This document shows positions 1 to 32,837 of a stretch of 32,866 nucleotides of DNA, piece after piece (within the stretch, counting starts at the first letter, position 1; each line of letters opens with the position of its first letter). The DNA is taken from NCBI GenBank assembly GCA_039917225.1, contig JBDSJV010000035.1, forward strand, positions 1 through 32,866. The letters are read 5' to 3'. Made by a program: the position numbers and the translations under genes. The notes beneath the pieces are model-generated. The model was not told where the DNA came from. It searched no databases and saw only the letters and a program-made list of their open reading frames with translations. The stretch comes from Candidatus Limnocylindrales bacterium. Its GTDB lineage: Bacteria; Chloroflexota; Limnocylindria; Limnocylindrales; CSP1-4.

Positions 1-2004
1 GCCGGCGACCAGGTCCTCAAGCAGATGCTGGACGACGGCATCGATCCACCCCTGCCGTTCGAGATGCAGCCGAAGACCGGTCGCAAGGCCGCCGTCATCG
101 GATCCGGCCCGGCCGGCATGGCCGCCGCCTACTACCTGCTCCTCAGCGGCCACGACGTGACCGTCTTCGAACGGGACGCGGCACCCGGCGGCATGCTCCG
201 CTACGGCATCCCGCAGTACCGTCTGCCGAAGGTCGAGGTCCTCGAGGCGGAGTACGAATCCGTCACCCGACTCGGCGGCAAGATCGTCTGCAACCAGGGA
301 CTCGGGCGGGACTTCACCCTGGACGACCTCCAGTTCCAGGGCTTCGATGCGGTCATTATCGCCATCGGCTGCTACGACACGAACAAGCTCGGCGTCCCGG
401 GCGAGGACGCGGCCGAGGTGCTCGACGGCCTCGAGTACCTGCGGACCGCGACACTCGGCCTGCCGTATCCGAACCATGTCGGCAAGCGCGTCGTCGTTAT
501 CGGCGGCGGCTTCACCTCGATGGACTCCACTCGGACCTCCGTCCGCCAGGGCGCCAAGGAAGTCACGCTCGTCTATCGCCGCGACATGAAGGACATGCCA
601 GCCGCGGGCGAGGTCCACGAGGCGATCGAAGAGGGCGTCACCGCCATCTTCCAGGCCGGCCCGACCCGGGTCATCACAGACGCCAAGGGCAACGTGACCG
701 GCGTCGAGTTCATCCGGATGGCGCTCGGTGAGCCCGACGCGTCCGGACGGCGGCGACCGCAGCCGGCACCCGGCACGGAATTCACGATCCCCTGTGACAG
801 GGTCCTGCTGGCCATCGGCCAGGGACCGGACCTGACATGGATCGGACCCGGATCCACGGGGCCGACCGCAACCAAGAACAAGCGCCTGCAGGCCGACGCC
901 GTCACGTTCGAAACGGCCCGTCGTGGCGTGTTCGCGACTGGCGACGTGCGGATCGGTGCAGCCACCGTGGTCCAGGCGGTCGCCGAGGGCCGCCGTTCCG
1001 CCTACGCGGCCGACGCCTATCTCCGCGGTCACGACCTGTCCGAGATCAAGACCCGCCAGACCCTGGCCGAGCCCCAGCCCGAGTTCCTGTCAATCGTCCC
1101 CTTCACCTCGGAGGCGAAGGAGCCGCGATACCGCCTCAAGGCCCTCGAGCCCGACGTCCGCAACAGCAGCTACGTCGAGTACGAGATCCCGTACTCGGTG
1201 GCCGAAGTGGTCGCCGAATCGACCCGCTGTCTGCAATGCACCTGCGAGGCGATCGGCTTCTGCGACCTCCGTCGCCTCGGGATCGAGTACGGAACCACGC
1301 TCCAGACGCTGGAGCCGCAGCACCACCAGGGCGCCGGCTACCGGAGCGTCACCGAGAACCGCTTCACCGGCGTCAACCACGACTACATCCGCGACGACAG
1401 CCACGCCTTCATCCTGCGCGAGCCGTCGCGCTGCATCGACTGCGGCCGCTGCGCGACCGTGTGCGCCGAGGTCGTCGGGGCGGCCTGCTACGACTTCATG
1501 CGCATCGGCTTCGACACGCTCGTGACGACGCCGCTCGATATGAGCCTCAACGACACGCCGTGCGTGTCATGCGGACGGTGCGCCGAGACGTGCCCGACCG
1601 GCGCGCTGATGCCCAAGCCGCGCATCCTCCAGAAGTTCGAGGTCGACGAGAGCCGCTGCATCCTGTGCGGCATCTGCGTCGACGCCTGCCCGTACGACGC
1701 ACTGCGCCATGGCGACGAGTTCGAGCTCGCGCACACCAGCCGCGAGGAGCCGATGATCGACCTGATGGCCCTCGCCTCGATCGATCGCGAGACCGACGTG
1801 ACCTACATCCGGCGCGAGCGTGACTGGCTCCAGCGAGCGGTCGAGGAGGGCCGCTTCGTCGATCGCGCGAAGCTCCTGCCCGTCCTCCCGGCCTCGGTCG
1901 CTTCATCCGGCGGCAACGGCAGCGCAAACGGCAGCGCGAAGGCGCTGCAGACCGGTGGCCACGACCACGGTGGGGCGGGCGGCACGCACGCCCACACGAA
2001 GTAG
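1..2004 (+). CDS. 5'-truncated multidomain flavo-iron-sulfur oxidoreductase: GltD-like NAD(P)H/FAD domain, then NuoG-N-terminal-like Cys clusters, then a NuoI-like 2x[4Fe-4S] C-terminus
   Basis: Frame 1 is open from nt 1 with no stop before the first ATG at 25, so the 5' end lies outside the window. GltD-like motifs: dinucleotide folds 'KAAVIGSGPAGMAAAYYL' and 'RVVVIGGGFTSMD', plus 'VFATGDVRIGAATVVQAVAEGRRSA'. Four Cys motifs follow: 'CLQCTCEAIGFCDL', 'RCIDCGRCATVCAEVVG', 'CVSCGRCAETCPTGAL' and 'CILCGICVDACPYDAL'. Next comes a NuoI-like post-cluster segment 'DEFELAHTSREEPMIDL' and a Gly/Ser/Asn/His-rich tail. The TAG stop at 2002-2004 is 7 nt before the nuoJ ATG. Confidence 0.8.
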   Translation, partial: AGDQVLKQMLDDGIDPPLPFEMQPKTGRKAAVIGSGPAGMAAAYYLLLSGHDVTVFERDAAPGGMLRYGIPQYRLPKVEVLEAEYESVTRLGGKIVCNQGLGRDFTLDDLQFQGFDAVIIAIGCYDTNKLGVPGEDAAEVLDGLEYLRTATLGLPYPNHVGKRVVVIGGGFTSMDSTRTSVRQGAKEVTLVYRRDMKDMPAAGEVHEAIEEGVTAIFQAGPTRVITDAKGNVTGVEFIRMALGEPDASGRRRPQPAPGTEFTIPCDRVLLAIGQGPDLTWIGPGSTGPTATKNKRLQADAVTFETARRGVFATGDVRIGAATVVQAVAEGRRSAYAADAYLRGHDLSEIKTRQTLAEPQPEFLSIVPFTSEAKEPRYRLKALEPDVRNSSYVEYEIPYSVAEVVAESTRCLQCTCEAIGFCDLRRLGIEYGTTLQTLEPQHHQGAGYRSVTENRFTGVNHDYIRDDSHAFILREPSRCIDCGRCATVCAEVVGAACYDFMRIGFDTLVTTPLDMSLNDTPCVSCGRCAETCPTGALMPKPRILQKFEVDESRCILCGICVDACPYDALRHGDEFELAHTSREEPMIDLMALASIDRETDVTYIRRERDWLQRAVEEGRFVDRAKLLPVLPASVASSGGNGSANGSAKALQTGGHDHGGAGGTHAHTK

Positions 2005-2011
2005 CCGACCG

Positions 2012-2602
2012 ATGCGAGCCTGGATGAACCTGCTGATCGCCGCCATCGCCGGCGCGATCATCACGACGCCTGCGTTGCTGGTCTTCGTCCTGGGCGGGGG
2101 GTCCGTGGATGACGCCCTGTTCGCGGCCCTCGCGACGCTGATGCTGACCTCCGCTCTGCTGGTGGTCACGATGCGGGACATCATCCGCTGCGGACTGGCG
2201 ATGATCGTGGCGTTTCTGGCCCTGGCCGGGATCTACGTCATCGTCGGCGCTCCGCTCGTCGCCGCAGCCCAGGTCATCGTCTACATCGGTGCGATCAGCG
2301 TCCTGATCCTGTTCGCGATCATGCTGACGGAGTCGAAGGCGGCTCCCTCGCGACTGGTGTTCCAGACGCAGGCGATCCCCGCCGCGGTGGCCTCGATCAT
2401 CCTGGCGGTCCTGATCACGCTCGGGATCAGCGCGACGGACTGGGGAGCCGCGGCCGTTCGCTTCCGATTGGGAACCGAGGCGTTGGCACAGGTGCTGTTC
2501 CGCGACTATGTCCTGCCCTTCGAAGTGGTCAGCGTCCTGCTCCTCGCCGCCGTGGTGGGCGGCGTCTTCATCGCCAAGCGCGAGCCCGAGGATCCGAGCT
2601 GA
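2012..2602 (+). CDS. nuoJ: NADH-quinone oxidoreductase subunit J
   Basis: '[21 protein letters not shown]' and C-terminal '[26 protein letters not shown]' are NuoJ/ND6 hallmarks. The protein has several TM helices. ATG 2012 is in frame with the listed ORF 1820..2602 and lies 7 nt after the upstream stop. A GTG at 2105 would give a more canonical length. The stop shares one nt with the nuoK ATG (TGATG). Confidence 0.88.
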
Positions 2603-2919
2603 TGGGCCTGGCCAACTCGCTCGACGCCTACCTGGTCCTGTCGGGCGCCCTCTTCGCGATCGGCACGTTCGGCTTCCTCGCCCGCCGCAACGCGATCAGC
2701 ATGCTGATGTCGATCGAGCTGATGCTCAACGCGGTCAACCTCGCGATCGTCGCCTTCGGCTCGTTCGTTCCGGCCCTCAAGGCTGATGGCTCGATCATCG
2801 CCCTGATGGTCATGGCCGTGGCCGCGGCCGAAGCCACCGTCGGGCTGGCGATCATCATCGCCATCTATCGGAATCGGAAGACGCCGCTGGTCGACGAGTA
2901 CGACCACATGCGCCGGTGA
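2602..2919 (+). CDS. nuoK: NADH-quinone oxidoreductase subunit K
   Basis: 105 aa with three hydrophobic helices. '[40 protein letters not shown]' is typical of NuoK/ND4L, including the membrane Glu. It lies between nuoJ and nuoL with overlapping start and stop codons. Confidence 0.95.
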
Positions 2920-4907
2920 GCATGGAGACGCTGATCCCGCTGATCGCCGCCCTGCCAATCGCCGGCTTCCTGTTCACGGCCGCCGTCGGGCGTCGCCTCG
3001 GACAACAGGCCCATATCGTCCCGGTCGCCGCCGTCGCGATCAGCTGGCTGATCGCCATGATCGTCGTCTTCACGGCCCTGACCGGCGGGTTCGGCGAGGA
3101 GGGGCGGTCGGTCAAGCTGTGGGACTGGATCCCCGCCGGGGGCTTTCACATCGAGGCAGCGTTCTTCGTTGACAACCTGACCGCGGTCCTGCTGATCGTG
3201 GTCACGACGATCGGCTTGCTCGTCCATGTCTACTCGATCGGCTACATGAGCCACGACCCGGGCTACTGGCGCTTCTTCGCCTACCTGAATCTGTTCATGT
3301 TCTCGATGCTCCTGCTCGTCCTCGGCGACAGCTGGCTGACGGTCTTCGTCGCCTGGGAACTGGTGGGCCTGTCCAGCTACTTGCTGATCGGCTTCTGGTA
3401 CCGCAAGAACTCGGCGGCCCTGGCCAGCAAGAAGGCGTTCATCGTCAACCGCGTCGGTGACGTCGGCTTCGCCCTCGGCATCATGGCGATCTGGGTCAAT
3501 ACCGGAACGCTCAACATCCGCGAGTCGATCGACGTCCTGACGAGCGAGACTTTCACGGCCTTCCCGATCCCGGTCGCGATCGTGGCGCTCCTTCTGTTCG
3601 CCGGAGCGATGGGCAAGAGCGCCCAGTTCCCGCTCCACGTCTGGCTACCGGACGCGATGGAGGGTCCAACCCCGGTCTCGGCCCTGATCCATGCGGCCAC
3701 GATGGTCAACGCCGGCGTCTACCTCGTCGCCCGGGCCAATCCGATCTTCGCCAGCGCGCCGGAGGCTATGGTGGTGGTGGCCGGGATCGGGATCTTCACG
3801 GCGATCCTGGCGGCCTCGATCGCGATGACCCAGACGGACATCAAGCGGGTCCTGGCCTATTCGACGCTGTCCCAGCTCGGCTACATGTTCGCGGCTCTCG
3901 GCGTCGGGGCGTGGACGGCGGCGATCTTCCACCTCATGACCCACGGCTTCTTCAAGGGCCTCCTCTTCCTCGGCTCGGGCTCGGTGATCCATGCGGTCCA
4001 CGAGGAGCAGGACATGCGGAAGATGGGCGGGCTGGCGAAGAAGATCCCGCACACCTACTGGACGATGCTGATCGGGTCGATCGCCATCGCGGGCATCCCG
4101 CCACTGGCCGGCTTCTTCTCCAAGGACGAGATCCTCGGCGAGGCGTTCAAGCTCGGCTTCGCCTGGGTCTGGGCGATCGGCGTACTCGTGGCGGTCATGA
4201 CCGCGTTCTACATGTTCCGACTCATCGGACTGACCTTCTGGGGCGAGAGCCGCGTGGACAAGGCGGTCGAGCCGAAGATCCACGAGTCGCCGCGGGTCAT
4301 GACCATTCCGCTCTGGCTGCTGGCGATTCCGTCGCTGCTCCTCGGCCTGGTCCTGGCGTGGCCGGGCCCGCCGCTCGGTCCGCTTTTCGGACAGGAGGGG
4401 CCGGGGCTTCTCGCCGGGTGGCTCGAACCGGTCTACCACGACGGCCTCGAGATCCTGGGCCACCACGAGGCCGAGTTCGCCCTCTTCGGCATCGATGGCG
4501 TGCTCATCCTGATCAGCGTCGCGGTCGCCGTCATCGGCATGGTCGCCGCCTGGCGGCTGTTCGGCGTCGAGATCGGCGGCCTCCGTCGGGGCGGGAACCC
4601 TGCGCAGGTCCAGGCCCTGTCCGCCCGCGTGCCGTTCCTCTACCGCGCCTCGCTCAACAAGTGGTGGTTCGATGAGCTCAACCATCTGGTGTTCATCGTC
4701 ATCGGCGGGCGCATCGCGGCCTTCCTGTGGTGGTTCGATGCCAACATCGTGGACGGCATCGTGAACGGCATCGGTACCGTCACCCGCCTGAGCGGCGGAG
4801 GGCTTGCCCGCGTCCAGACGGGCCGGGTCCAGAACTACGCCCTGGGAATCGCGATCGGGCTCATCGTGATGGTCGCTTCGTACGCCCTGATGACAGGAGG
4901 TCGCTAG
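2916..4907 (+). CDS. nuoL: NADH-quinone oxidoreductase subunit L
   Basis: 663 aa with an antiporter-like core: '[16 protein letters not shown]' and '[34 protein letters not shown]'. The long C-terminal extension carries 'KWWFDE' and '[15 protein letters not shown]', typical of the NuoL lateral-helix region. GTG 2916 overlaps the nuoK stop (GTGA). ATG 2922 is an alternative start. Confidence 0.95.
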
Positions 4908-4909
4908 CC

Positions 4910-6547
4910 GTGGACGGTCTGCCGATCCTGTCGCTCATCACGTTCCTGCCGCTGGCGGGGGCGCTTCTGATCGCGTTCCTGCCGTCGACCTACGCGCGAC
5001 CGGTCGCCCTCGGAGCCGCACTCCTCACCTGGATCGTGTCCCTCCTCCTGGCGATCGGCTTCTCGGCCAGTCGCGGCGGGTTGTTCCAGTTCACCGAGGA
5101 GGTGTCCTGGATCCCGGCCTTCGGGATCGAGTACAAGCTCGGCGTCGACGGGCTGTCGCTCCTGCTGGTGGTCCTGACCACGACGCTGTCGTGGATCAGC
5201 ATCCTGGCCAGCTTCAAGCCGATCCAGACCCGGATCAAGGAATACATGATCTCGTTCCTGATCCTCGAGGTCGGCATGATCGGCGTGTTCCTGGCCCTCG
5301 ACACGTTCCTCTTCTACATCTTCTGGGAGATCGTCCTCGTCCCGATGTACCTGATCATCGGGATCTGGGGTGGCGCGAACCGCATCTACGCCACGATCAA
5401 GTTCGTCCTCTACACCCTCGTCGGCTCGCTGCTCATGCTGGTGGCCATCCTCGCCACGGCATTCGCCTTCCAGGCGGCCCACGGCGGGGACTGGACGGGG
5501 GCCTTCGACTACGAGGCCCTGCGGGCCTTCGCGGCCAGCGGCGGCGGCTTCGATCCGACGCTCCAGCTGCTCGCCTTCGGGGCGTTCTTCCTCGCCTTCG
5601 CGATCAAGGTCCCGATGTTCCCGTTCCACACCTGGCTGCCCGACGCCCACGTCGAGGCGCCGACCGCCGGCTCGGTCATCCTGGCCGGTGTTCTGCTGAA
5701 GCTCGGTGGCTACGGGTTCATCCGCTACGGCCTGTCGTTCTACCCGGATGCGGCCCAGACCTACGCGCCGGCCATCATCATCCTGAGCCTCATCGCCATC
5801 ATCTATGGGGCGATCGTGGCGCTGGTCCAGCCGGACCTCAAGAAGCTCGTCGCGTACTCGTCGGTCAGCCACATGGGCTTCGTGACGCTCGGGATCTTCA
5901 TCTTCCAGCCGCAGGGCATGGAAGGAGCGATTCTCCAGATGGTCAACCATGGCCTGATAACCGGCGCCCTCTTCCTCCTCGTCGGCGTGATCTATGAGCG
6001 CACGCACGATCGGGCGATCGCCAGGATGGGCGGACTGGCGGCGCGAATGCCGGTCTACGTGACGATCTTCGGGTTCTTCGTCTTCGCCTCGGCCGGGCTG
6101 CCCGGTCTGTCCGGCTTCGTCGGGGAGTTCCTCACCCTCGTCGGCGCCTTCAGCTTCAATCCGTTGACCGCCGCGGTGGCCACGTTCGTGATGATCCTCG
6201 GGGCCGCCTACCTGCTCTGGATGTTCCAGCGCGTTGCGACCGGCGAACTGTCCTCGTTCCTGTCCGGACTCGGCTCCCACCTGACCGACGTCAGCCCGAC
6301 CGAGATCCTGACCCTGGCCCCGCTCATGGCGCTGGTGGTGGCCTTCGGGTTGTTCCCGGGGATCCTGCTCGACGTCATCAACGGCTCGGTGGACCGGGCG
6401 CTGGCGGACGTCAACGGCGGGGCGGCGATTGCCATCGACCCGCTCGCTCTCGCGATCGGGCTCGGTGCGCTCGCGGCCGTCGTGGTCCTGCGGGTCGTGA
6501 CACTCCCGATGTTCCGGGGTCGGGCCTCGGCCGAGAACTCCGCATGA
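4910..6547 (+). CDS. nuoM: NADH-quinone oxidoreductase subunit M
   Basis: 'KVPMFPFHTWLPDAHVEAPTAGSVILAGVLLKLGGYG' is an ND4/NuoM hallmark. GTG 4910 is in frame with the listed ORF 4727..6547, lies 2 nt after the nuoL stop, and is preceded by AGGAGG at 4895-4900. The listed upstream extension overlaps nuoL and reads as Arg-rich nonsense. Confidence 0.92.
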   Translation: MDGLPILSLITFLPLAGALLIAFLPSTYARPVALGAALLTWIVSLLLAIGFSASRGGLFQFTEEVSWIPAFGIEYKLGVDGLSLLLVVLTTTLSWISILASFKPIQTRIKEYMISFLILEVGMIGVFLALDTFLFYIFWEIVLVPMYLIIGIWGGANRIYATIKFVLYTLVGSLLMLVAILATAFAFQAAHGGDWTGAFDYEALRAFAASGGGFDPTLQLLAFGAFFLAFAIKVPMFPFHTWLPDAHVEAPTAGSVILAGVLLKLGGYGFIRYGLSFYPDAAQTYAPAIIILSLIAIIYGAIVALVQPDLKKLVAYSSVSHMGFVTLGIFIFQPQGMEGAILQMVNHGLITGALFLLVGVIYERTHDRAIARMGGLAARMPVYVTIFGFFVFASAGLPGLSGFVGEFLTLVGAFSFNPLTAAVATFVMILGAAYLLWMFQRVATGELSSFLSGLGSHLTDVSPTEILTLAPLMALVVAFGLFPGILLDVINGSVDRALADVNGGAAIAIDPLALAIGLGALAAVVVLRVVTLPMFRGRASAENSA

Positions 6548-6557
6548 GCGCCACCTG

Positions 6558-8030
6558 ATGACCTTCGAGGACCTCGTAACGATCGCCCCGTTCGTCGCGG
6601 CCATCCTGGTCGCGTGCGGTGTCGTCGTGGCCGACATCATCGTCCCGGGACGCCGAACGGCGGTGCTGGCGGTGGCGTTCGCCGGTCTTGCCGTCATCGC
6701 GCTGCTCACGATCAGCGCTGGAACGACCGCCGCCACGGCCTTCGGCGGTTCGTATCGCGTCGACGACCTGACGACCTACCTCGACCTGATCTTCATCGGG
6801 ATCGTCGCCCTGACGCTGCTCTTTGCTCCGGACTACCTGGAGGCGCGGCGACTGCCCCTCGCCGAGTTCACGGCGGTGCTGCTGTTCGCGATGACCGGCG
6901 CGATGCTGCTTGCGGCATCGGCCGACCTCCTCGTCCTGTTCATTGGCCTCGAACTGATGGTCCTGCCGGGCTACCTGCTCGCCGGCTACCACAAGTCGGA
7001 CGGCTTCTCGACCGAGGGCGCGATCAAGTACTTCCTGCTGGGATCGTTCAGCTCGGCGATCTTCCTGTTCGGCCTGGCATTCGTCTGGGGCCTCACCGGG
7101 ACGACCCGAATCAGCGAGGTCGCCGATTCGCTGGCGGCGATGACCGCAACGGGTGGCCTGTCCGCGGGATTGGCGCTCGGCCTCGCCTTCATGTCCACCG
7201 GCGTCGCCTTCAAGATCGCCGCGGTCCCGTTCCACTACTGGACACCGGACGCCTACCAGGGCTCGCCGACGCCGGTCACCGGGTACCTCAGCGTCGGGCC
7301 GAAGATCGGTGCGTTCGCCCTCATCCTTCGCCTCTTCGTCGAGGCGCTCGGCCCGCTCAAGCTCGACTGGTTGCCGGTCGTGGTGGTCCTGGCCATCCTG
7401 ACCATGACCCTCGGCAACCTCGTGGCGCTGACCCAGACCAACGTCAAGCGGATGCTGGCCTACAGCTCCATCGCCCACACCGGCTACATCCTCGTTGGTC
7501 TCGCCGCCTATGCCGCCGGTCGGATCGAGGGCCTCGAGGGCCTGCTGTTCTACGGGGCCGCCTACTCGGTCATGAACCTCGGCGTCTTTGCCGTCATCGC
7601 GGCGCTCCAGCGGCGCCAGGGCGTGACATCAAACCTGGATACCTTCGCCGGCCTCGTCCGGCGCGAGCCGGCCCTCGCGATCCTGATGACGCTGTTCCTG
7701 CTCTCGCTGACCGGTATTCCCCCGACGGCCGGGTTCTTCGCCAAGGCGTACGTGATCCTGGCCGCGGTCCAGGCGAGCCAGGCCGGGACCGACATCCTCG
7801 GGCTGCTGGCTGTGGTCGCAGTCCTGAACGCGGCGGCGGCGGCGTTCTACTACCTCCGCGTCGTGGTCTACATGTTCATGCGGGATCCGGCGTCCGACGA
7901 GCCCGGACTGGCGCACGGCCGGCTGATGTGGATCGGGTTGGCCGTCACGGCGCTGCTGACGGTCGCCTTCGGGCTGATCCCCGGTCCCTTGCTCGAGATC
8001 GTCGGGGCCGCCGCCCGCGCCATCGGGTAG
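6558..8030 (+). CDS. nuoN: NADH-quinone oxidoreductase subunit N
   Basis: 490 aa. 'KIAAVPFHYWTPDAYQGSPTPVTGYLSVGPK' and 'KRMLAYSSIAHTGYIL' are ND2/NuoN hallmarks. It is the last gene of the nuo run. Confidence 0.93.
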   Translation: MTFEDLVTIAPFVAAILVACGVVVADIIVPGRRTAVLAVAFAGLAVIALLTISAGTTAATAFGGSYRVDDLTTYLDLIFIGIVALTLLFAPDYLEARRLPLAEFTAVLLFAMTGAMLLAASADLLVLFIGLELMVLPGYLLAGYHKSDGFSTEGAIKYFLLGSFSSAIFLFGLAFVWGLTGTTRISEVADSLAAMTATGGLSAGLALGLAFMSTGVAFKIAAVPFHYWTPDAYQGSPTPVTGYLSVGPKIGAFALILRLFVEALGPLKLDWLPVVVVLAILTMTLGNLVALTQTNVKRMLAYSSIAHTGYILVGLAAYAAGRIEGLEGLLFYGAAYSVMNLGVFAVIAALQRRQGVTSNLDTFAGLVRREPALAILMTLFLLSLTGIPPTAGFFAKAYVILAAVQASQAGTDILGLLAVVAVLNAAAAAFYYLRVVVYMFMRDPASDEPGLAHGRLMWIGLAVTALLTVAFGLIPGPLLEIVGAAARAIG

Positions 8031-20143: not shown

Positions 20144-21121
20144 TCACCCGAGAATCGAAGCAAATCCCAGCCCACCGCCAGCCTCAAGCCGTGCGAGCAG
20201 CAGATGGTAGTAAAGCATTCCCTGCTGGGGTCGCAGCGCGTCGATGACCTGGTCGACCTCCAGTCCGATCGGGCCGGCCACCAACGCGAGGTTCCGGGCG
20301 ACGCCCGTGTCGTTCATCGGAAAGACATCGAGCCGGCCGAGGCCGCGGAGCAGGATGACGGCCGCTGTCCACGGCCCGATGCCCTTGATGTCCTGGAGCA
20401 GGCCTGCGGCAGCCGGACTCGGGAGTGCCTCGAGCGTCGCCCGGTCGAGCCGGCCGGTCACGTGAGCCTCACCCGCACGCCGCAGCGTCGCGATCTTGCG
20501 ACCGCTGAGGCCGATCGCACGGAGGTCGTGATCCGCAGACGCCAGGAAGTGTTCGGGACCTGGGAACGGGTACAGCGAGACCCCATCGACGTCGACCGCT
20601 GGCTCAGCAGCCACGATCAGGCGCCGGACGATGGTGCTTGCTGCATGGAGACTCAGCTGCTGGAAGGTCACCACGTTCACAAATGCCTCCCAGAGCGATG
20701 CGTAACGAGGCGGTTTCACACCGCGCATGCGCAGCGCCAGTGGGCTTAACCAGGGGATGGTTGTGGCGGCCCGGCCGAATGAGCTGACGTCCCGATCCGT
20801 CCCAAGCATCGCCCGCACCAGGGCGAGGGCCGGTTCGTGGTCGTCCGGGTTGCCCTCGATCGTGGCGGCCAGGACCTCATCGCTGGCCTGAGCCACGCGG
20901 ACAATCACGGGTCCGTGCGCACCAATCAGCGCACGAACGTAGCGCCCGTCGGCCGTCAGCACGTCGACGATGTTGGTCGCCAGACGACGCAGGACGCTCA
21001 CGGTGAGATCGAGCCGATATGGAGCGATGACCGGAATTTCGTACTCTGATCGGATCGAGAGTGCTCGATCCCCGTGTACCAGGCGGCTGGCGGTCATCTG
21101 GTTGGTCAGTCGGTCTCTCAT
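20144..21121 (-). CDS. alkA: DNA-3-methyladenine glycosylase II-like HhH-GPD base-excision enzyme
   Basis: HhH 'LQDIKGIGPWTAAVILLRGLGRLDVFPMNDTGVARNL' with the catalytic Asp in 'MNDTG'. An AlkA-like N-terminal domain is present. An alternative start lies at the second Met (21097). Confidence 0.8.
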   Translation of the reverse strand: MRDRLTNQMTASRLVHGDRALSIRSEYEIPVIAPYRLDLTVSVLRRLATNIVDVLTADGRYVRALIGAHGPVIVRVAQASDEVLAATIEGNPDDHEPALALVRAMLGTDRDVSSFGRAATTIPWLSPLALRMRGVKPPRYASLWEAFVNVVTFQQLSLHAASTIVRRLIVAAEPAVDVDGVSLYPFPGPEHFLASADHDLRAIGLSGRKIATLRRAGEAHVTGRLDRATLEALPSPAAAGLLQDIKGIGPWTAAVILLRGLGRLDVFPMNDTGVARNLALVAGPIGLEVDQVIDALRPQQGMLYYHLLLARLEAGGGLGFASILG

Positions 21122-21279
21122 TCGACCTCGCCGTCTTCCCCTGGTTTGGCCGGCGGCCGACCGCGACCGCCTCCATGCGGTCCAAGGCGTCCGTCATGCT
21201 TCGCCCCGGCAGCGTACGCCCATCCGCCTCGCCGCACGCCGCCGTCGGTGGGTCGGTCCCGTACTGCCCGATCGGGGGC

Positions 21280-21308
21280 TTGACACATCTGAGGGATCAA
21301 CGCATATT
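21280..21308 (+). promoter_or_regulatory. Candidate sigma-70-type promoter of the ArsR/PI operon
   Basis: Consensus -35 TTGACA at 21280-21285, a 17-nt spacer, then CATATT at 21303-21308 (4/6 match to TATAAT). It sits about 25 nt upstream of the GTG at 21334, in the only AT-rich patch of the 212-nt intergenic region. Confidence 0.45.
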
Positions 21309-21329
21309 GATATAAACCGTCATTGATCC
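21294..21329. promoter_or_regulatory. Inverted repeat overlapping the -10 region; candidate ArsR-family operator
   Basis: GGATCAA (21294-21300) and TTGATCC (21323-21329) are perfect reverse complements. A nested ATCAA-N6-TTGAT lies at 21296-21311. The repeat overlaps the putative -10 and transcription start, directly upstream of the ArsR-family gene. Confidence 0.35.
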
Positions 21330-21333
21330 GACG

Positions 21334-21744
21334 GTGCCCAATCTCCCTTCAACGCCAGTTCCTCCATCTCCGGAGACTGCTCTGAGCCCCTCCCCAGCCC
21401 GGATCCGCTCCACGATTGCCGCGGTCGTCGACCAGCCCGATGACCTCCGCGCGGTTCGTCTGATTCACAAGACGCTCGCTGACGTGAACCGCCTGCGGAT
21501 CGTGCGGCGACTCGCCCAGGGCGAGGCCTCCGTGACGGACCTCATCGATCACGTCGGGCTGAGCCAGCCCCTGGTGTCTTGGCACCTCGGCAAGCTCCGG
21601 CTCGCAGGGCTGGTGGAGACACGCCGCGCCGGCCGCGAGACCGTGACGCGGCTCATTCCGGAAGCCTGGGATCGCTTTGCCATCTACGAGCGGCGGGTGC
21701 TGGGCCTGGCGCCCGCCGAGCGGCCACGGAGCGCGGTTTCGTGA
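21334..21744 (+). CDS. ArsR/SmtB-family transcriptional regulator
   Basis: '[57 protein letters not shown]' is a canonical ArsR wHTH. The start is GTG at 21334. Its stop overlaps the next gene's GTG (GTGA at 21741-21744). Confidence 0.85.
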
Positions 21745-22418
21745 GCGGCTCATTGGTCTCCGCCGGTATGCGAAGCCGGTTCCGGGCCATGGCCGGGCCG
21801 ATTGCCCGGGCCCTCGGACGACTGGGCCTGACGCCGAATCACCTCACCTTCATCGGCTTCGGTATCGCCGTGATCGCGGCAGTCGCGGCCGCACAGCAGG
21901 CCTGGCTCGCGGCTGGACTCCTCGTGATCTTCGGCGCGGTCTTCGACCTGTTCGACGGCGCACTTGCGCGGGCCACGAACCGGGTCAGCAGGCTCGGAGC
22001 GTTCTACGACTCCGTCTTCGACCGCTGGGGCGAGGGCGTGATCTACGTCGGCCTCGTCTGGGGGACGCTGGACTTCGGGCTCTGGCTGCCGGTCATGCTA
22101 TCGGCCACCGCCCTTGCCGCTGCCGTCATGGTCAGCTACACGCGGGCCAAGTCAGAGAGCCTCGGTTTCACGACCGGGGCCGGCATGGCTGCCGTGGGTC
22201 TCGCCCCGCGCGAGGTCCGGATCGCGATCCTCTCGATCGGCCTCATCGTGGCCGGTCTTCTTCCTGGCTTCCCGGAGGACATGGACCTCCCGGGCGCGAT
22301 GGGCTATCCGTTGTCCGGACTTGCGCTGAACGCGGCCCTCGGACTCATCACGATCCTCGCCACGATCACGACGATCCAGCGCATTCTTCACGTTCGCGCC
22401 CAGGCTCGGGAGGGCTGA
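21741..22418 (+). CDS. CDP-alcohol phosphatidyltransferase; by context a phosphatidylinositol-phosphate synthase (PgsA1-like)
   Basis: The exact signature D-x2-D-G-x2-A-R-x8-G-x3-D-x3-D is present in '[30 protein letters not shown]'. The protein is multi-TM and lies immediately upstream of ino1. Start is GTG 21741 or ATG 21768. Confidence 0.85.
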
Positions 22419-22483
22419 CGCGCGGCGCGATCACTCGAATCATCCCACCAACCATCCAGCCCATCAGGAGTCAGGAGCAAGCA

Positions 22484-23710
22484 GTGAGCAGCAAGAACGG
22501 CAAGAACGGCACGACCGCCGGAACCTGGGCCGGTTCCGGGCGCAAGGACGGCAAGATCCGGGTCGCCATCGTCGGCGTCGGGAACTGCGCCAGCAGCCTC
22601 GTCCAGGGCCGCTACTACTACGAGAACGCCAAGGTCGGTGATTTCGTCCCGGGCCTGATGCATGTCGAGCTCGGCGGCTACCACGTCCGGGACATCGAGT
22701 TCGTGGCCGCCTTCGACATCGACAAGAACAAGGTCGGCAAGGACATCTCCGAGGCCATCTACCAGAAGCCGAACAACACCATCGTCTTCCAGCAGGTCGC
22801 GAACATGGGCGTCAAGGTCGAGCGGGGGATGACCCACGACGGCCTCGGGAAGTACCTCAGCCAGATCATCGAGAAGGCCCCGGGCCCGACCGCCGACATC
22901 GTCGGGATCCTCAAGGAGCGCGAGGTCGATGTCATGGTCTCGTACCTCCCCGTCGGGAGCGAGGAGGCGACCAAGTGGTACGTCGAGCAGGCGCTCCGTG
23001 CCGGCGTCGCGTTCGTCAACGCCATCCCGGTCTTCATTGGCCGCGAGCCCTACTGGCAGCGCCGCTTCGCCGAGGCCGGGCTTCCCGTCATCGGTGACGA
23101 CATCAAGAGCCAGGTCGGCGCGACGATCAGTCACCGCGTCATGACCCGCCTATTCATGGATCGTGGCGTTCGCCTCGATCGAACCTACCAGCTGAACTTC
23201 GGCGGCAACACCGACTTCCTGAACATGCTCGAGCGGGAGCGCCTCGAGTCCAAGAAGATCAGCAAGACGAATGCCGTCACCTCCATGCTCGACTACGAGA
23301 TGGATCCCGATGACGTCCACGTCGGGCCGAGCGACCACGTGCCGTGGCTGCTCGATCGCAAGTGGTGCTACATCCGGATGGAGGGCACGACCTTCGGTGA
23401 TGTGCCGCTCAACGCCGAGCTCAAGCTCGAGGTCTGGGACAGCCCGAACAGCGCCGGTGTCATCACCGACGCCATCCGCTGCCTCAAGCTCGGCCTTGAC
23501 CGTGGCCTGAGTGGGACGCTGGTCGCCCCGTCGAGCTACTTCATGAAGAGCCCGCCGCATCAGATCCATGACGACATCGCCTTCAACCGGGTCGAGGCCT
23601 TCATCCTGGGTGAGGACAACGAGACGCTCGTCGGCACCGAGGTCCCGACGGTCCGCAAGCTGCGGAAGATGGCCGGGTCGAAGGCGAAGGTCGCCGCCGC
23701 CGCGAAGTGA
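22484..23710 (+). CDS. ino1: myo-inositol-1-phosphate synthase
   Basis: '[22 protein letters not shown]', '[13 protein letters not shown]', '[17 protein letters not shown]' and '[16 protein letters not shown]' resemble the actinobacterial/archaeal-type MIPS. GTG 22484 is preceded by tandem AGGAG motifs (22466-22470 and 22473-22477). The listed 269-codon upstream extension is out-of-frame overlap with the previous gene. Confidence 0.92.
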
Positions 23711-24717
23711 CGGATCGAGAGCGCCGACTGGAGGCACCGCATCGACGCCTCCGGTCGGGTTCGCCCTTCTTTGAACGAGCGGTGGTCGCGGGATACAAGG
23801 CGTTTGCCTGGCTGATCTCGCACATCCCGCCGGCGATTCCACGCGCCGTTCTCGGCCGCGGCGCCCAGCTGTCGTATCTCCTCTGGCCCGGCAAGCGCCG
23901 CTGGTCCAACCTGAATTTCGGGCATGTCCTGGGACTGCCGCCGAGCCATCTCCGGGTTCGCCGGACGGCACTTGCAGCGTACCGACGGTACGGCCAGTAC
24001 GTCGTGGAGCTGGCCCGGCTGCCGATGCTCGCGCGTGACCACGCCGACGAGCTGGTCAGCGGTGCGGATCTGGATGGCATCCACGAGATCTGGGCGAATT
24101 CGAAGGGTGGTCTGATCTTCACGCTCGGACACCTCGGCAACAACGAGGCCGTGGCTGCCGGCGTCGCGTCACGCGGCTGGCCGATCAACGTCGTCGCCGA
24201 CGACTCGTCGTTCCCGGGCCTGTTCGAGGAGTTCCGGCGGACGCGTGAGCAATGGGGTGTCCATGTCATCCCGTGGCGCAACCTGCGCGAGATCTACGCG
24301 GTCCTCCGGCGTCGCGAGATGCTGGCGCTGCTGATCGACTGGGGATATCGGCGCGACGGTATTCCGGTCAGGCTGTTCGATGCGTGGACCACCCTGCCCG
24401 CCGGACCCGCCTCGCTCGCCGCGAAGACCGGCTCCCGAATCCTGCCGGTGACGCTCCATCGCAGACCAGATGGCCGGACCTTCTCGATCTCGTGGGCCGA
24501 ACCGATCGAGGTGATGGGCTCTGACCCCGCCTCGCTGCAGCGGGCGACCCAGGCGATGGCCGATGCCTTCGAGGCAGCGGTGCGGGCGGCGCCGGACCAG
24601 TGGTACTCGTTCAAGCCGATCTGGCCGGCCGATCCGGCAGAGTCAGCGGTGCTCGAGGCCCGCGCCAGGGCGATGCTCAGCGGTGACCCGTCCTCCACGG
24701 CGCAGGAGTCCGCGTGA
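23707..24717 (+). CDS. LpxL/HtrB-family (PatA-like) lysophospholipid/PIM acyltransferase, copy 1
   Basis: The H-x4-[DE] acyltransferase motif appears in '[15 protein letters not shown]'. '[37 protein letters not shown]' is typical of the family. The start GTG overlaps the ino1 stop (GTGA). Confidence 0.82.
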
Positions 24718-25739
24718 ACCCTGAGACCGAACCCGTGCCCGGCGCTGCACCTCCTCCGGCGGACCGGGGGACGCCGTTCCAGCGACTTCGGGCGGGTCTC
24801 CTGGCTCTGATCGCGCGGGCCCTGATCGCGATTCCGGAGGGGCCGGTAAACGCCATCGGCGAGGCGGCCGGCGAACTCTGGTATCGAATGGCGCCAGGTC
24901 GTGCCGCGCGGGCACGGCGGAACCTCCAGCGCGTGGCGAGCCACCTGGTGGCGCGTGGGCTGGCGAACGACGCGACTCGCGCCGCCGCCGAGGACCCGGC
25001 CGCGCTCGAACGCCTGGTCCGTCGTGCCTTCCGGCAGGCGGCCCGCTACTACCTCGACATGGTCCGCCTGCCCGGGCACAGCGCCGCGGAGCTGGAGTCG
25101 CGGCTGATCGTGGAGACACCGGACACCGTGGCCGACGCCTTCGGCGAACCGGGGCCCATGGTCTTCGTCTCGATGCATTTCGGAGCGGTCGAGTATCCGG
25201 CGCTCTTCGCCGTCGCCCGAACCGGGCGCCACGTCGTCGCTCCGATGGAGACGCTCGCAGATCCCGCGCTCCAGTCATGGATCGAGCGGACTCGAGGTTC
25301 GGTCGGGGTCGACATCGTGTCGTTGCGCGATGCACGCCGGGCGCTGACCCAGGCCCTGACCGAAGGTCGGGTCGTGGGCATGGTGGCGGATCGCAACGTC
25401 GCTGGCGGCGCCATCGAAGTGCCGTTCTTCGGCGCCCCGGCCCCCCTGCCGATGGGACCGGGCCTGTTCGCGATGGAGGCCGGTCTCCCGATCTGGGTGG
25501 CCGCGGTGCGACGGGCCGGTGGCGGCCGCTACCGGGGCCAGCTCAGGCGGGTCGACATCCCGACCGAGGGCCTGCGCCGGGCCCGACTGGCCGCGGCGAT
25601 GGCTGGCGTCGCGCGGGCGATGGAGGAATCGATTGCCGCGGCGCCGGAACAGTGGTGGTCGGCGCTCGCGCCGGTCTGGCCGGATCTCGATCCCGAGGCA
25701 GCGACCGGGACCGGGCGCCTCGAGGAGGCCGGCCGATGA
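24714..25739 (+). CDS. LpxL/HtrB-family (PatA-like) acyltransferase, copy 2
   Basis: 'MVFVSMHFGAVEYPAL' carries H-x4-E. 'VVGMVADRNVAGGAIEVPFFGAPAPLPMGPGLFAMEAG' parallels copy 1. The start GTG overlaps the copy-1 stop (GTGA). Confidence 0.8.
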   Translation: MNPETEPVPGAAPPPADRGTPFQRLRAGLLALIARALIAIPEGPVNAIGEAAGELWYRMAPGRAARARRNLQRVASHLVARGLANDATRAAAEDPAALERLVRRAFRQAARYYLDMVRLPGHSAAELESRLIVETPDTVADAFGEPGPMVFVSMHFGAVEYPALFAVARTGRHVVAPMETLADPALQSWIERTRGSVGVDIVSLRDARRALTQALTEGRVVGMVADRNVAGGAIEVPFFGAPAPLPMGPGLFAMEAGLPIWVAAVRRAGGGRYRGQLRRVDIPTEGLRRARLAAAMAGVARAMEESIAAAPEQWWSALAPVWPDLDPEAATGTGRLEEAGR

Positions 25740-26545
25740 CCGAGCGCCTCGGTCGTGCCGATCTCCATATCCATACGCTCGCCTCGGATGGCACGGCCGG
25801 TGCCCTCGAGATCCTCGAGTTCGTCGAACAGACCACCGACCTCGACGTCATCGCGATCACGGATCACGAGCGGATCGATGCGGCGCGCGCCGCACAGGTC
25901 GTCGCCCGCGACGGGGGCTTCAGGGTCGAGGTGATCGTCGGGGAGGAGATCACGACACTCGGCGGTCACCTCCTGGCGCTCTGGATCGACCAGCCGATCC
26001 GCCCGTTCCGCTCGCTCCGGACCACGATCGCGGCGGTTCACGACCAGGGTGGCATCGCCATTCCCGCCCATCCGCTGGTTCCCTACCCGCTGTGCGCCCA
26101 GGGGTTCGTCCTGCGCCGCCTGCTCGAGGACGACCCGCGCTACTGGCCCGACGGGATCGAGGCCTTCAATCCGACCGCACTGGGGCGCCCCGGCCACGAG
26201 CGAGCCGTCCGCTTCGCCGAGGAGTTCGGGCTGGCTCGCATCGGCAACTCGGATGCCCACGCGCTCGAGGCGATCGGCGCCGGCCACACGACCTTCCCGG
26301 GTCGGAGTGCGGCGGATCTCAGGGCGGCCGTCGAGGCTCGCACGACGCACGAGCACGGCGCCTTCCACCGGACGACGGACCAGCTGGCGATCTTCCAGGC
26401 CCAGCTCCGCAAGTACGGCCGGGACGCACGGGCCAACCTCGGCGGCCGGATCCGGCGCGATGGCTCGGGCCGCGACCTCGGCTACCCGAGGGACCCTGGC
26501 GGGGCCGGCTCGCCGAACATCCGGGCAAGCGAGGGGGAACGATGA
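25736..26545 (+). CDS. PHP-domain metal-dependent phosphoesterase
   Basis: PHP motifs in order: 'ADLHIHTLASDG', 'VIAITDHE', 'VIVGEE', 'GIAIPAHP', 'IEAFN', 'GNSDAH'. ATG 25736 overlaps the upstream stop (ATGA). Its own stop overlaps the next ATG (ATGA at 26542). Confidence 0.85.
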   Translation: MTERLGRADLHIHTLASDGTAGALEILEFVEQTTDLDVIAITDHERIDAARAAQVVARDGGFRVEVIVGEEITTLGGHLLALWIDQPIRPFRSLRTTIAAVHDQGGIAIPAHPLVPYPLCAQGFVLRRLLEDDPRYWPDGIEAFNPTALGRPGHERAVRFAEEFGLARIGNSDAHALEAIGAGHTTFPGRSAADLRAAVEARTTHEHGAFHRTTDQLAIFQAQLRKYGRDARANLGGRIRRDGSGRDLGYPRDPGGAGSPNIRASEGER

Positions 26546-27716
26546 AGATCGGGCTTGTCACGCCGTACGTCTATCCACTCCCCGGCGGCGTGAATCAGCA
26601 CGTCCGCTACCTCTACGAGAACCTGCGGCAGCGCGGCCACGACGTCCGGATCATCACCAGCTCCCACGGTCTCCAGCGCGCGTCCCAGGGCGATGTGATC
26701 CGGATCGGGAAGGGCTTCTCGATGCCCGCCAACGGCTCGATGGGCACGATCACCCTGTCGCCGCGCTACCTCTCCCAGGTCCGGGCGGTGCTCGAGCGGG
26801 AAGACTTCGACCTGCTCCATTTCCACGAACCCTTCGTCCCCTTCCTGTCGCTCATCGTCCTCGGGTTGTCGAAGAGCGTGAACGTGGCGACCTTCCACGC
26901 CTACGGTGGCTTCTCCCCGGCCTACGAGTTCGGCTCGAAGGTGATGGGCTCGTATGCGAACCGCCTCCACGGCCGGATCGCCGTATCGGCGGCGGCGCGC
27001 CACTTCATCGACCGGTTCTTTCCGGGTGACTACAAGGTCATCCCCAATGGCGTCGACATCGCCCGATTCCGGCGCGCGGTGCCAATCGCGCGATGGCAGG
27101 ACGGGACTCGCAACATCCTCTTCGTCGGCCGCTTCGAGTCCCGAAAGGGCCTCCTGGATCTCCTCCGCGCCTACCGGATCCTCCGCAAGACCGGGTGTCC
27201 ATGTCGCCTCCTCATCGTCGGCGGTGGGCCACAGGAGCGCGAGGCGCGACGCTATGTCATGACCCGCCGGATGGGCGGAGTCGAGTTCCTTGGAAAGGTC
27301 TCCGATGAAGAGCGGGACGCCCTCTTCAAGACGGCCGATGTGTACGTCTCGCCGGCGACCGGGCGCGAATCGTTCGGGATCGTCCTGCTCGAGGCGATGG
27401 CCGCGGGTACCTCCATCGTCTGCAGCGACATCCACGGCTACAAGGGCGTCGTTCGCCGGGACCGCGACGCGCTGCTGGTGCCACCGAAGGACGCCAAGGC
27501 GCTGGCGCTCGCCATCGGGCGCCTCGTCAATGACGACGAGCTCCGGGCACGGATGGCCGCCTCGGGCCTCGAGCGTGCGAATGAGTTCTCGTGGGAGCGG
27601 GTCACCGGCAAGGTCGAGGACTACTACGGGTTCGTGATCCGTCGTCTCGCGGCGCAGGGTGCGCTGCCTCCCGGCTTCACGGCGGAAGTTCCGCCCCCCA
27701 TCCGTCCCGCTTCCGC

Positions 27717-27720
<4 letters not shown>
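26542..27720 (+). CDS. pimA: GT4 glycosyltransferase, PimA-like phosphatidylinositol mannosyltransferase
   Basis: 'MKIGLVTPYVYPLPGGVNQHVRYLYENLRQRGHDVRIIT' parallels the PimA N-terminus. The GT4 E-x7-E region is 'RESFGIVLLEAMAAGTSIVCSD'. Synteny with the PI synthase and acyltransferases supports the call. The symbol rests on context, not on a search. Confidence 0.8.

Positions 27721-32837
<5,117 letters not shown>

Follow-up and report, generated by a model that had tools for sequence, protein, structure and literature searches.

Phosphatidylinositol (PI) synthesis in bacteria and archaea passes through phosphatidylinositol phosphate (PIP). The gene treated here encodes a PHP-fold metal phosphoesterase (the PHP protein) and lies in a predicted PI operon on contig JBDSJV010000035.1 of a Candidatus Limnocylindrales bacterium (GenBank assembly GCA_039917225.1); the whole stretch of DNA that was analysed, 32,866 nucleotides long, is called the window. 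Among described systems, the mycobacterial operon for PI and PI mannosides (PIM) (pgsA1-patA-pimA, Rv2612c-Rv2610c) shares its core enzymes with the window, namely a PIP synthase (PIPS), a PatA-type acyltransferase, and the mannosyltransferase PimA; to our knowledge, it has no PHP gene. The Chloroflexota operon adds to this set a myo-inositol-3-phosphate synthase (MIPS), a second acyltransferase, an ArsR regulator, and the PHP gene.

The enzyme that dephosphorylates PIP has been named only in Bacteroides; elsewhere, including mycobacteria, where PI is essential, it was called unidentified up to 2026. It was reported as not identified in archaea and bacteria generally (PMC9385802), and the mycobacterial step was ascribed to a "yet-unidentified phosphatase" (PMC6506517), which was still "long-sought" in a July 2026 preprint where EphE, an alpha/beta-hydrolase, was proposed without biochemical proof (bioRxiv 10.64898/2026.07.15.738315). 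The Bacteroides thetaiotaomicron enzyme, BT_1525 (PIPPh), belongs to the PgpA family and was assigned genetically in 2022; PIP accumulates in the deletion mutant (PMC9246714). An earlier note on this DNA, made from the letters alone (the sequence-only reading), had described the PIP phosphatase as missing, which holds outside Bacteroides, mycobacteria included, and not within it. BT_1525 is like the window PHP in its proposed reaction (PIP to PI) and in being clustered with MIPS and PIP synthase, but the two belong to unrelated families, no PgpA similarity was found among the Pfam or NCBIfam matches of the window PHP, and BT_1525 is backed by genetics whereas the role of the PHP protein is predicted; the likeness would be one of functional analogy only. 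A literature search of incomplete coverage gave no paper in which a PHP protein is connected with PI synthesis, PIP synthase, or MIPS; the reaction and the fold are each known, and their combination has not been described before.

The window PHP is read here, with a probability of about 0.6, as the PIP phosphatase that completes the two-step prokaryotic route to PI. Its gene is part of a run of seven tightly packed genes on the + strand (21334-27720), with start and stop codons overlapping at four junctions, in the following order:

21334-21744, + strand: ArsR-family helix-turn-helix regulator, first gene of the operon (Pfam HTH_5, 1.7e-13)
21741-22418, + strand: cytidine diphosphate (CDP)-alcohol phosphatidyltransferase, predicted PIPS (Pfam CDP-OH_P_transf, 1.5e-15)
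22484-23710, + strand: myo-inositol-3-phosphate synthase (MIPS/Ino1; NCBIfam TIGR03450, Pfam Inos-1-P_synth)
23707-24717, + strand: PatA-like acyltransferase A (Pfam Lip_A_acyltrans, 1.3e-29)
24714-25739, + strand: PatA-like acyltransferase B (Pfam Lip_A_acyltrans, 1.4e-27)
25736-26545, + strand: PHP-fold metal phosphoesterase, predicted PIP (PI-3-phosphate) phosphatase (motifs, Pfam, fold model, and conserved linkage to PI genes)
26542-27720, + strand: GT4 glycosyltransferase, PimA ortholog (GDP-mannose:PI alpha-mannosyltransferase; PDB match, Pfam GT4 and Glycos_transf_1 domains)

In the proposed pathway, MIPS would make inositol-3-phosphate, which the membrane CDP-alcohol transferase (PIPS) would join with CDP-diacylglycerol to give PIP. 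The PHP protein, acting as a cytoplasmic phosphomonoesterase with a multinuclear metal site, would then take the 3-phosphate off PIP, and the PI formed by this hydrolysis of the headgroup phosphate would be mannosylated by PimA, the mannosylated product being acylated by the two PatA-like enzymes. We infer that PIP is the substrate and that the step stands between synthase and mannosyltransferase; a soluble, acidic protein might reach its membrane lipid through recruitment by PIPS or PimA or via an Arg-rich C-terminal tail.

The PHP gene is real. Its translation of 269 amino acids has no internal stop and contains the four motifs quoted in the sequence-only reading (HIHTLASDG at residues 11-19, AITDHE at 40-45, PAHP at 110-113, and GNSDAH at 170-175). 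The placement described there was also found, with two Lip_A_acyltrans genes upstream, a full-length PimA homolog downstream, and an ATGA overlap at each end: the PHP start codon (ATG, 25736) shares bases with the TGA of acyltransferase B (CCGATGA), and the PHP stop codon (TGA, 26543-26545) does so with the GT4 start codon (ATG, 26542; CGATGAAG). A Shine-Dalgarno-like run, GGAGGAGG, lies just 5' of the PHP start. A longer open reading frame in the same frame, from 25277, was rejected because the homologs leave the extension uncovered; the start at 25736 is favoured because homologs of 252-275 amino acids align from residue 1. Relatives of the protein numbered 4018 at E <= 1e-5 in one search and 152 cluster representatives at E < 1e-30 in another. 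Within the operon, PHP is the third most conserved gene (median identity of 66%, compared with 53% for PIPS and also lower values for both acyltransferases).

The protein is a member of the PHP superfamily (PF02811 / PF13263) by its motifs, its profile matches, and its distorted-barrel fold. Pfam PHP_C (PF13263) scored 47.9 bits against a cut-off of 21.3, and the N-terminal Pfam PHP model alone remained sub-threshold on the window protein (19.4 vs 26.4), although many homologs pass it. An AlphaFold2 model built with 54 diverse homologs had a mean predicted local distance difference test score of 89.9 and a predicted template-modelling score of 0.87, and all 38 Foldseek matches in the PDB at E <= 1e-3 were PHP-domain proteins, with a probability of 1.0. 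Residues H11, H13, D18, H44, E71, H78, H112, E142, N145, D173, and H175 are each either invariant or conserved in at least 90% of the 54 homologs; the metal ligands are placed at predicted strand ends in the model, and RNase AM has matching motifs at the aligned positions. Because the metal-ligand set is intact and conserved, the protein is expected to be a catalytically active phosphoesterase.

The closest characterised sequence relatives of the window PHP are RNase AM / TrpH (YciV) and the 3',5'-nucleoside bisphosphate phosphatase Cv1693, which have in common with it the PHP fold and the aligned HxH, D, H, E, H, H, E, and DxH motifs. Family-profile matches were obtained to RNase AM of Vibrio and E. 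coli (9etk, 5.1e-25; 7ug9, 4.4e-20) and to Cv1693 (2yb1, 1.6e-16), and relatives of the PHP protein carry the annotation 'TrpH' at the Joint Genome Institute (JGI). The NCBIfam RNase RNM model (NF047791) reached 46.3 bits against a cut-off of 375 and matched only residues 8-75, the nucleoside bisphosphate phosphatase model (NF041577) reached 37.2 bits against 400, and an insertion of about 85 residues in RNase AM (residues ~86-169) has no counterpart in the window protein. Template-modelling (TM) scores from Foldseek to structures of the RNase AM/Cv1693 type were 0.5-0.6, and the genomic context of the window PHP is lipid synthesis, not RNA metabolism. The nearest NCBIfam model, the CehA/McbA metallohydrolase (NF038032), was narrowly missed (67.1 bits over residues 7-179; cut-off of 80), and histidinol-phosphate phosphatase was distant (NF004981, 18.5 bits vs a cut-off of 117; PDB 2yxo, a weak match with E = 4e-4 and TM 0.38). 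The best structural matches were the uncharacterised proteins TM0559 (2anu) and BVU_3505 (3e38), which Foldseek matched at E = 1e-11 to 1e-12 with 18-20% sequence identity and, when the smaller protein was used for normalisation, TM 0.6-0.7; like the window PHP they are compact PHP domains with a PHP_C-type E-x-x-N motif, and they give no guide to the substrate.

Judged from the matches of its products, the operon is a genuine PI/PIM pathway, because the GT4 protein matched PDB PimA (4n9w/2gej) at E = 7e-63 over residues 1-363 (next family, 4e-20), the match of acyltransferase A to PDB PatA (5f2t) was 1e-22, MIPS scored 535.9 bits against TIGR03450 (E = 4.5e-161, under the cut-off of 638; Pfam Inos-1-P_synth, 1.6e-35), and the best PDB relatives of PIPS were PIP synthases. 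The operon holds a gene for every step but PIP to PI. The PHP gene encodes the sole hydrolase without an assignment in the conserved cluster, and besides the PHP phosphoesterase no phosphatase family (PgpA, PAP2, HAD, IMPase) was found among the scanned open reading frames of the window. An MshA-type reading of the GT4 gene was rejected, MshA (PDB 7qsg) matching at 1.5e-12 against 7e-63 for PimA.

Whether a phosphatase is needed depends on the product of the synthase. PIPS could start either with the GTG at 21741 or with the ATG at 21768, its best NCBIfam models were AIP (archaetidylinositol phosphate) synthase at 132.8 bits and PIP synthase at 114.9 bits, both under their cut-offs, and its best PDB matches were PIPS and Mycobacterium tuberculosis PgsA1. 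In PgsA1, the phosphate of inositol phosphate is held by S132, R152, R155, and R195, and enzymes with inositol phosphate as their substrate typically have R94 (PMC6506517). The HMMER alignment of the window enzyme to PgsA1 showed D-R at 93-94, S-Y at 132-133, and arginines at R152 and R155; the R195 region lies outside this alignment, and a Q-R motif is matched in the Renibacterium enzyme. PIP as the product, and hence the need for a phosphatase, is expected because the equivalents of R94, S132, R152, and R155 are kept, which makes a good but incomplete case for the predicted product.

The association of PHP with PI genes was then followed across lineages in sampled loci, linked loci being those with PI genes within 6 kb and, in the metagenomes, on the same strand. 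The genome scan used one genome per species and a query from a 14-sequence subset of the PHP alignment, and the best 80 of 472 relatives were examined; the metagenome scan was anchored on the 34%-identical PHP homolog of Thermodesulfobium narugense, from another phylum, to leave close relatives. In those best 80 genome relatives (41-85% identity), PHP lay between an acyltransferase and PimA in 80/80, with ArsR, PIPS, and MIPS at most 5 kb away in nearly all, and every genome locus with a flank of at least 2.5 kb (60/60) carried PI genes within 6 kb. Where metagenome loci extended 2.5 kb or more to each side, PI genes were present in 22/26 (PIPS in 21, acyltransferase in 19, PimA in 19, and MIPS in 16), and 14/16 of those with a flank of at least 4 kb were linked, PIPS being present in all 14. 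The linked loci ranged in GC content from 0.29 to 0.74 and came from Limnocylindria, Ktedonobacteria (Ktedonobacteraceae), Anaerolineae, Dehalococcoidia, metagenome-assembled genomes (MAGs) labelled Dormibacterota, and Thermodesulfobiota (Thermodesulfobium). The sequence-only reading had proposed PHP as a candidate by guilt by association and had named a lack of association with PI synthesis beyond this locus as grounds for giving the proposal up; the linkage proved strong and broad, and the proposal gained support from the presence of PIPS across phyla and gene orders. Its actinobacterial framing did not carry over to the window, which is Chloroflexota (Limnocylindria) by its close homologs: those of 72-91% identity are all in Chloroflexota MAGs, mostly Candidatus Limnocylindria / Limnocylindrales. 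No actinobacterial member of the PHP family was found in the sampled loci.

Gene order changes at least five times, and PHP is retained throughout. From ArsR onwards the window has PIPS-MIPS-acyltransferase-acyltransferase-PHP-PimA; a second order is MIPS-acyltransferase-(acyltransferase)-PHP-PimA-PIPS, a contig of 29% GC has PIPS-MIPS-acyltransferase-PimA-acyltransferase-PHP, and Thermodesulfobium has PHP2-MIPS-acyltransferase-PHP-PIPS-acyltransferase-PimA, with PHP directly before PIPS. The Ktedonobacteraceae range from ArsR-acyltransferase-acyltransferase-PHP-GT4-PIPS-NYN (L168) to five loci with just ArsR-PHP-PIPS(-NYN) and no acyltransferase, PimA, or MIPS nearby (L129, L122, L135, L151, and L157); an insertion sequence separates PHP and PIPS on one of these minimal contigs. 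These loci form a natural deletion series in which PimA and the acyltransferases have been lost, and the minimal loci therefore tie PHP to the synthase step, not to mannosylation or acylation.

Several points weigh against a PIP phosphatase. All support for the role comes from association and elimination, and the nearest sequence relatives of established function act on nucleotides and RNA. The PHP protein is acidic (isoelectric point of 6.06), whereas PimA, both acyltransferases, and PIPS have isoelectric points near 10, and neither a transmembrane segment nor an evident membrane-binding surface was found in its sequence; its C-terminal helix is weakly amphipathic (hydrophobic moment up to 0.45) and is followed by the Arg-rich tail. 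The PIPS and acyltransferase matches fall under the NCBIfam equivalog cut-offs. Most linked loci come from Chloroflexota and their neighbours, so that shared ancestry inflates the counts, although inertia alone fits poorly with the rearrangements and with the Thermodesulfobium and low-GC cases. Of the family members whose flanks were usable, about one in six to one in four do not stand beside PI genes, and residues separating linked from unlinked PHP members were sought and none was found; substrate specificity is unreadable from sequence because no residues tell the two groups apart.

Two other explanations survive best, and each is unlikely. In the first, PHP comes in at a later stage of the same pathway: PIP itself would be the acceptor for PimA, and perhaps for the acyltransferases, and PHP would take the 3-phosphate off the mannosylated PIP. 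In many GT4 pathways the acceptor still carries its phosphate when it is glycosylated and loses it afterwards (OtsA/OtsB, MshA/MshA2, and SPS/SPP), a precedent that favours this order, as do the translational coupling of PHP to PimA in the window, the position of PHP directly upstream of PimA in most loci, and two proteins, P0136 and P0191, with near-full-length matches to both PHP and PimA (apparent fusions). The gene orders speak the other way, since the ArsR-PHP-PIPS loci of Ktedonobacteraceae have neither PimA nor an acyltransferase nearby, PHP of Thermodesulfobium directly precedes PIPS and not PimA, and an acyltransferase stands between PHP and PimA in L091. Mycobacterial PimA uses PI in vitro, and many of the PHP "fusions" are frameshift artefacts of gene calling. 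Most PHP-GT4 and acyltransferase-PHP cases were rejected on this ground after BLAST against the window proteins, P0217, for instance, carrying fragments of four genes; P0136, P0191, and a PHP-GT2 fusion, P0254, are the only ones that look full-length, and they give weak evidence of the Rosetta-stone kind.

About as improbable is a broader phosphatase of phospholipids or headgroup phosphates, for which PIP would be one substrate beside phosphatidylglycerol phosphate (PGP), di-inositol-phosphate phosphate, and N-acetylglucosamine (GlcNAc)-inositol-phosphate. Some unlinked members adjoin other headgroup enzymes. PHP stands next to a GT4 most like GlcNAc-phosphatidylglycerol synthase in L085 (7205-9126) and L164 (3149-5691) and next to an MshB/Mca-like PIG-L deacetylase in L145 (6403-8184), these matches being sub-threshold; in L150 (545-4975) it is followed by a weakly IPCT-like nucleotidyltransferase (NTP-transferase), two CDP-alcohol phosphatidyltransferases, and a B12-radical SAM enzyme, which may be a headgroup pathway of the CDP-inositol or di-inositol-phosphate type also needing a phosphatase. 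With these neighbours, the PHP-GT2 fusion, and the lack of residues separating linked from unlinked members, there is a hint that the family serves several phosphorylated headgroups. Linked and unlinked members were not cleanly split into two clades when 164 PHP sequences were placed in a neighbour-joining tree. Set against this breadth, the neighbour assignments are all under curated cut-offs and rest on single loci, and the majority of the sampled family members are PI-linked.

The sequence-only reading had offered two alternatives of its own, and both are disfavoured. A soluble enzyme of the inositol-monophosphatase kind, turning inositol-3-phosphate into free inositol for other uses, would suit an acidic, soluble protein that looks like a cytosolic enzyme and is encoded with MIPS in most loci, and PHP enzymes such as histidinol phosphatase do act on small soluble phosphomonoesters. 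It is nevertheless quite improbable: it would use up the substrate of a co-expressed synthase that keeps its inositol-phosphate-binding arginines, MIPS is missing from the surroundings of the minimal ArsR-PHP-PIPS loci, and PIPS is a steadier neighbour than MIPS (21 vs 16 of the 26 metagenome loci). Least probable of all is a nucleotide or RNA hydrolase of the RNase AM/TrpH type (a phosphatase of adenosine 3',5'-bisphosphate (pAp), as in the earlier suggestion of a cytidine monophosphate- or pAp-type by-product hydrolase, or a 5'-3' exoribonuclease) present in the operon by chance, which has the best solved-structure sequence matches and the JGI label on its side and against it the scores far under the curated cut-offs (46 vs 375 and 37 vs 400 bits), the absent RNase AM insertion with TM of 0.5-0.6, a pathway with no pAp-producing step, and a retention through five or more gene orders and across several phyla that chance cannot account for.

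Beyond the window, the chances are about even that the PHP family provides the missing PIP phosphatase in Chloroflexota, Dormibacterota, and Thermodesulfobiota, as a second, non-homologous solution beside the PgpA type of Bacteroides; its relatives outside such operons may dephosphorylate other products with phosphorylated headgroups (PGP ahead of GlcNAc-phosphatidylglycerol synthesis, di-inositol-phosphate phosphate, or GlcNAc-inositol-phosphate). The question is directly testable with a conserved, soluble, and easily expressed candidate of 27 kDa. Were the PIP phosphatase assignment true, unrelated folds would have been recruited to PIP dephosphorylation on two or more occasions, the gene would mark genomes with a complete PI pathway among the Chloroflexota that abound in soil and fresh water, and a large, unannotated PHP branch labelled 'TrpH-like' would gain its first physiological substrate. 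The scope is Chloroflexota and their allies; the mycobacterial problem would not be solved thereby, because no actinobacterial ortholog was found in the samples.

ArsR stands first in the PI cluster of almost every related locus and in all the classes examined, the minimal ArsR-PHP-PIPS loci included, which suggests that it is a conserved, dedicated regulator of PI synthesis; it was seen at the head in the window (21334-21744), in L129 (2018-2362), in L122 (2833-3180), and in L168 (5632-5991). A scan of the operon for promoters and terminators gave nothing above chance. One promoter match was recorded upstream:

21280-21308, + strand: sigma-70-like promoter match (TTGACA-17-CATATT), possible operon promoter, just upstream of the ArsR gene

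It was the sole match in 20700-28200, where shuffled sequences averaged 0.7, so that its position is plausible and not statistically meaningful.

For both acyltransferases the best NCBIfam model was PIM acyltransferase (A, 135 bits, under the cut-off of 209; B, 105 bits). The two are paralogous by their cross-hits and about 27-30% identical. Mycobacteria have one PatA, and we know of no enzyme identified there that acylates the inositol ring; the second PatA-like paralog could be a candidate for this acylation. The tandem pair is retained in most Chloroflexota PI operons.

Two further genes accompany PHP or PIPS in particular lineages. In Thermodesulfobium, a second, shorter PHP (L084, 7508-8164; 218 amino acids, a distant paralog) lies directly upstream of MIPS. 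In loci of the Ktedonobacteraceae type, a protein of 650-780 amino acids with an NYN domain (a C-terminal nuclease) consistently follows PIPS (L129, 4465-6690; L151, 13377-15719; L168, 11383-13689; L170, 10832-12799).

Downstream of the operon, the window has one large gene on the other strand:

27717-32837, - strand: membrane protein of the PMT/GT-C family, 1706 amino acids (Pfam PMT, 9.1e-15; PMT_4TMC, 2.2e-10)

This gene is convergent with PimA, with a tail overlap of 4 nt, and its position is kept in most Limnocylindria loci and not in other classes. Its product may be a downstream mannosyltransferase acting on glycolipid or protein, its membership in the pathway being uncertain. At the other end of the window (25-8030), a Pyr_redox_2/4Fe-4S protein is followed by complex I-type membrane subunits like NuoJ, K, L, M, and N, and in L001, the closest relative, the operon is preceded by the same Proton_antipo_M genes.

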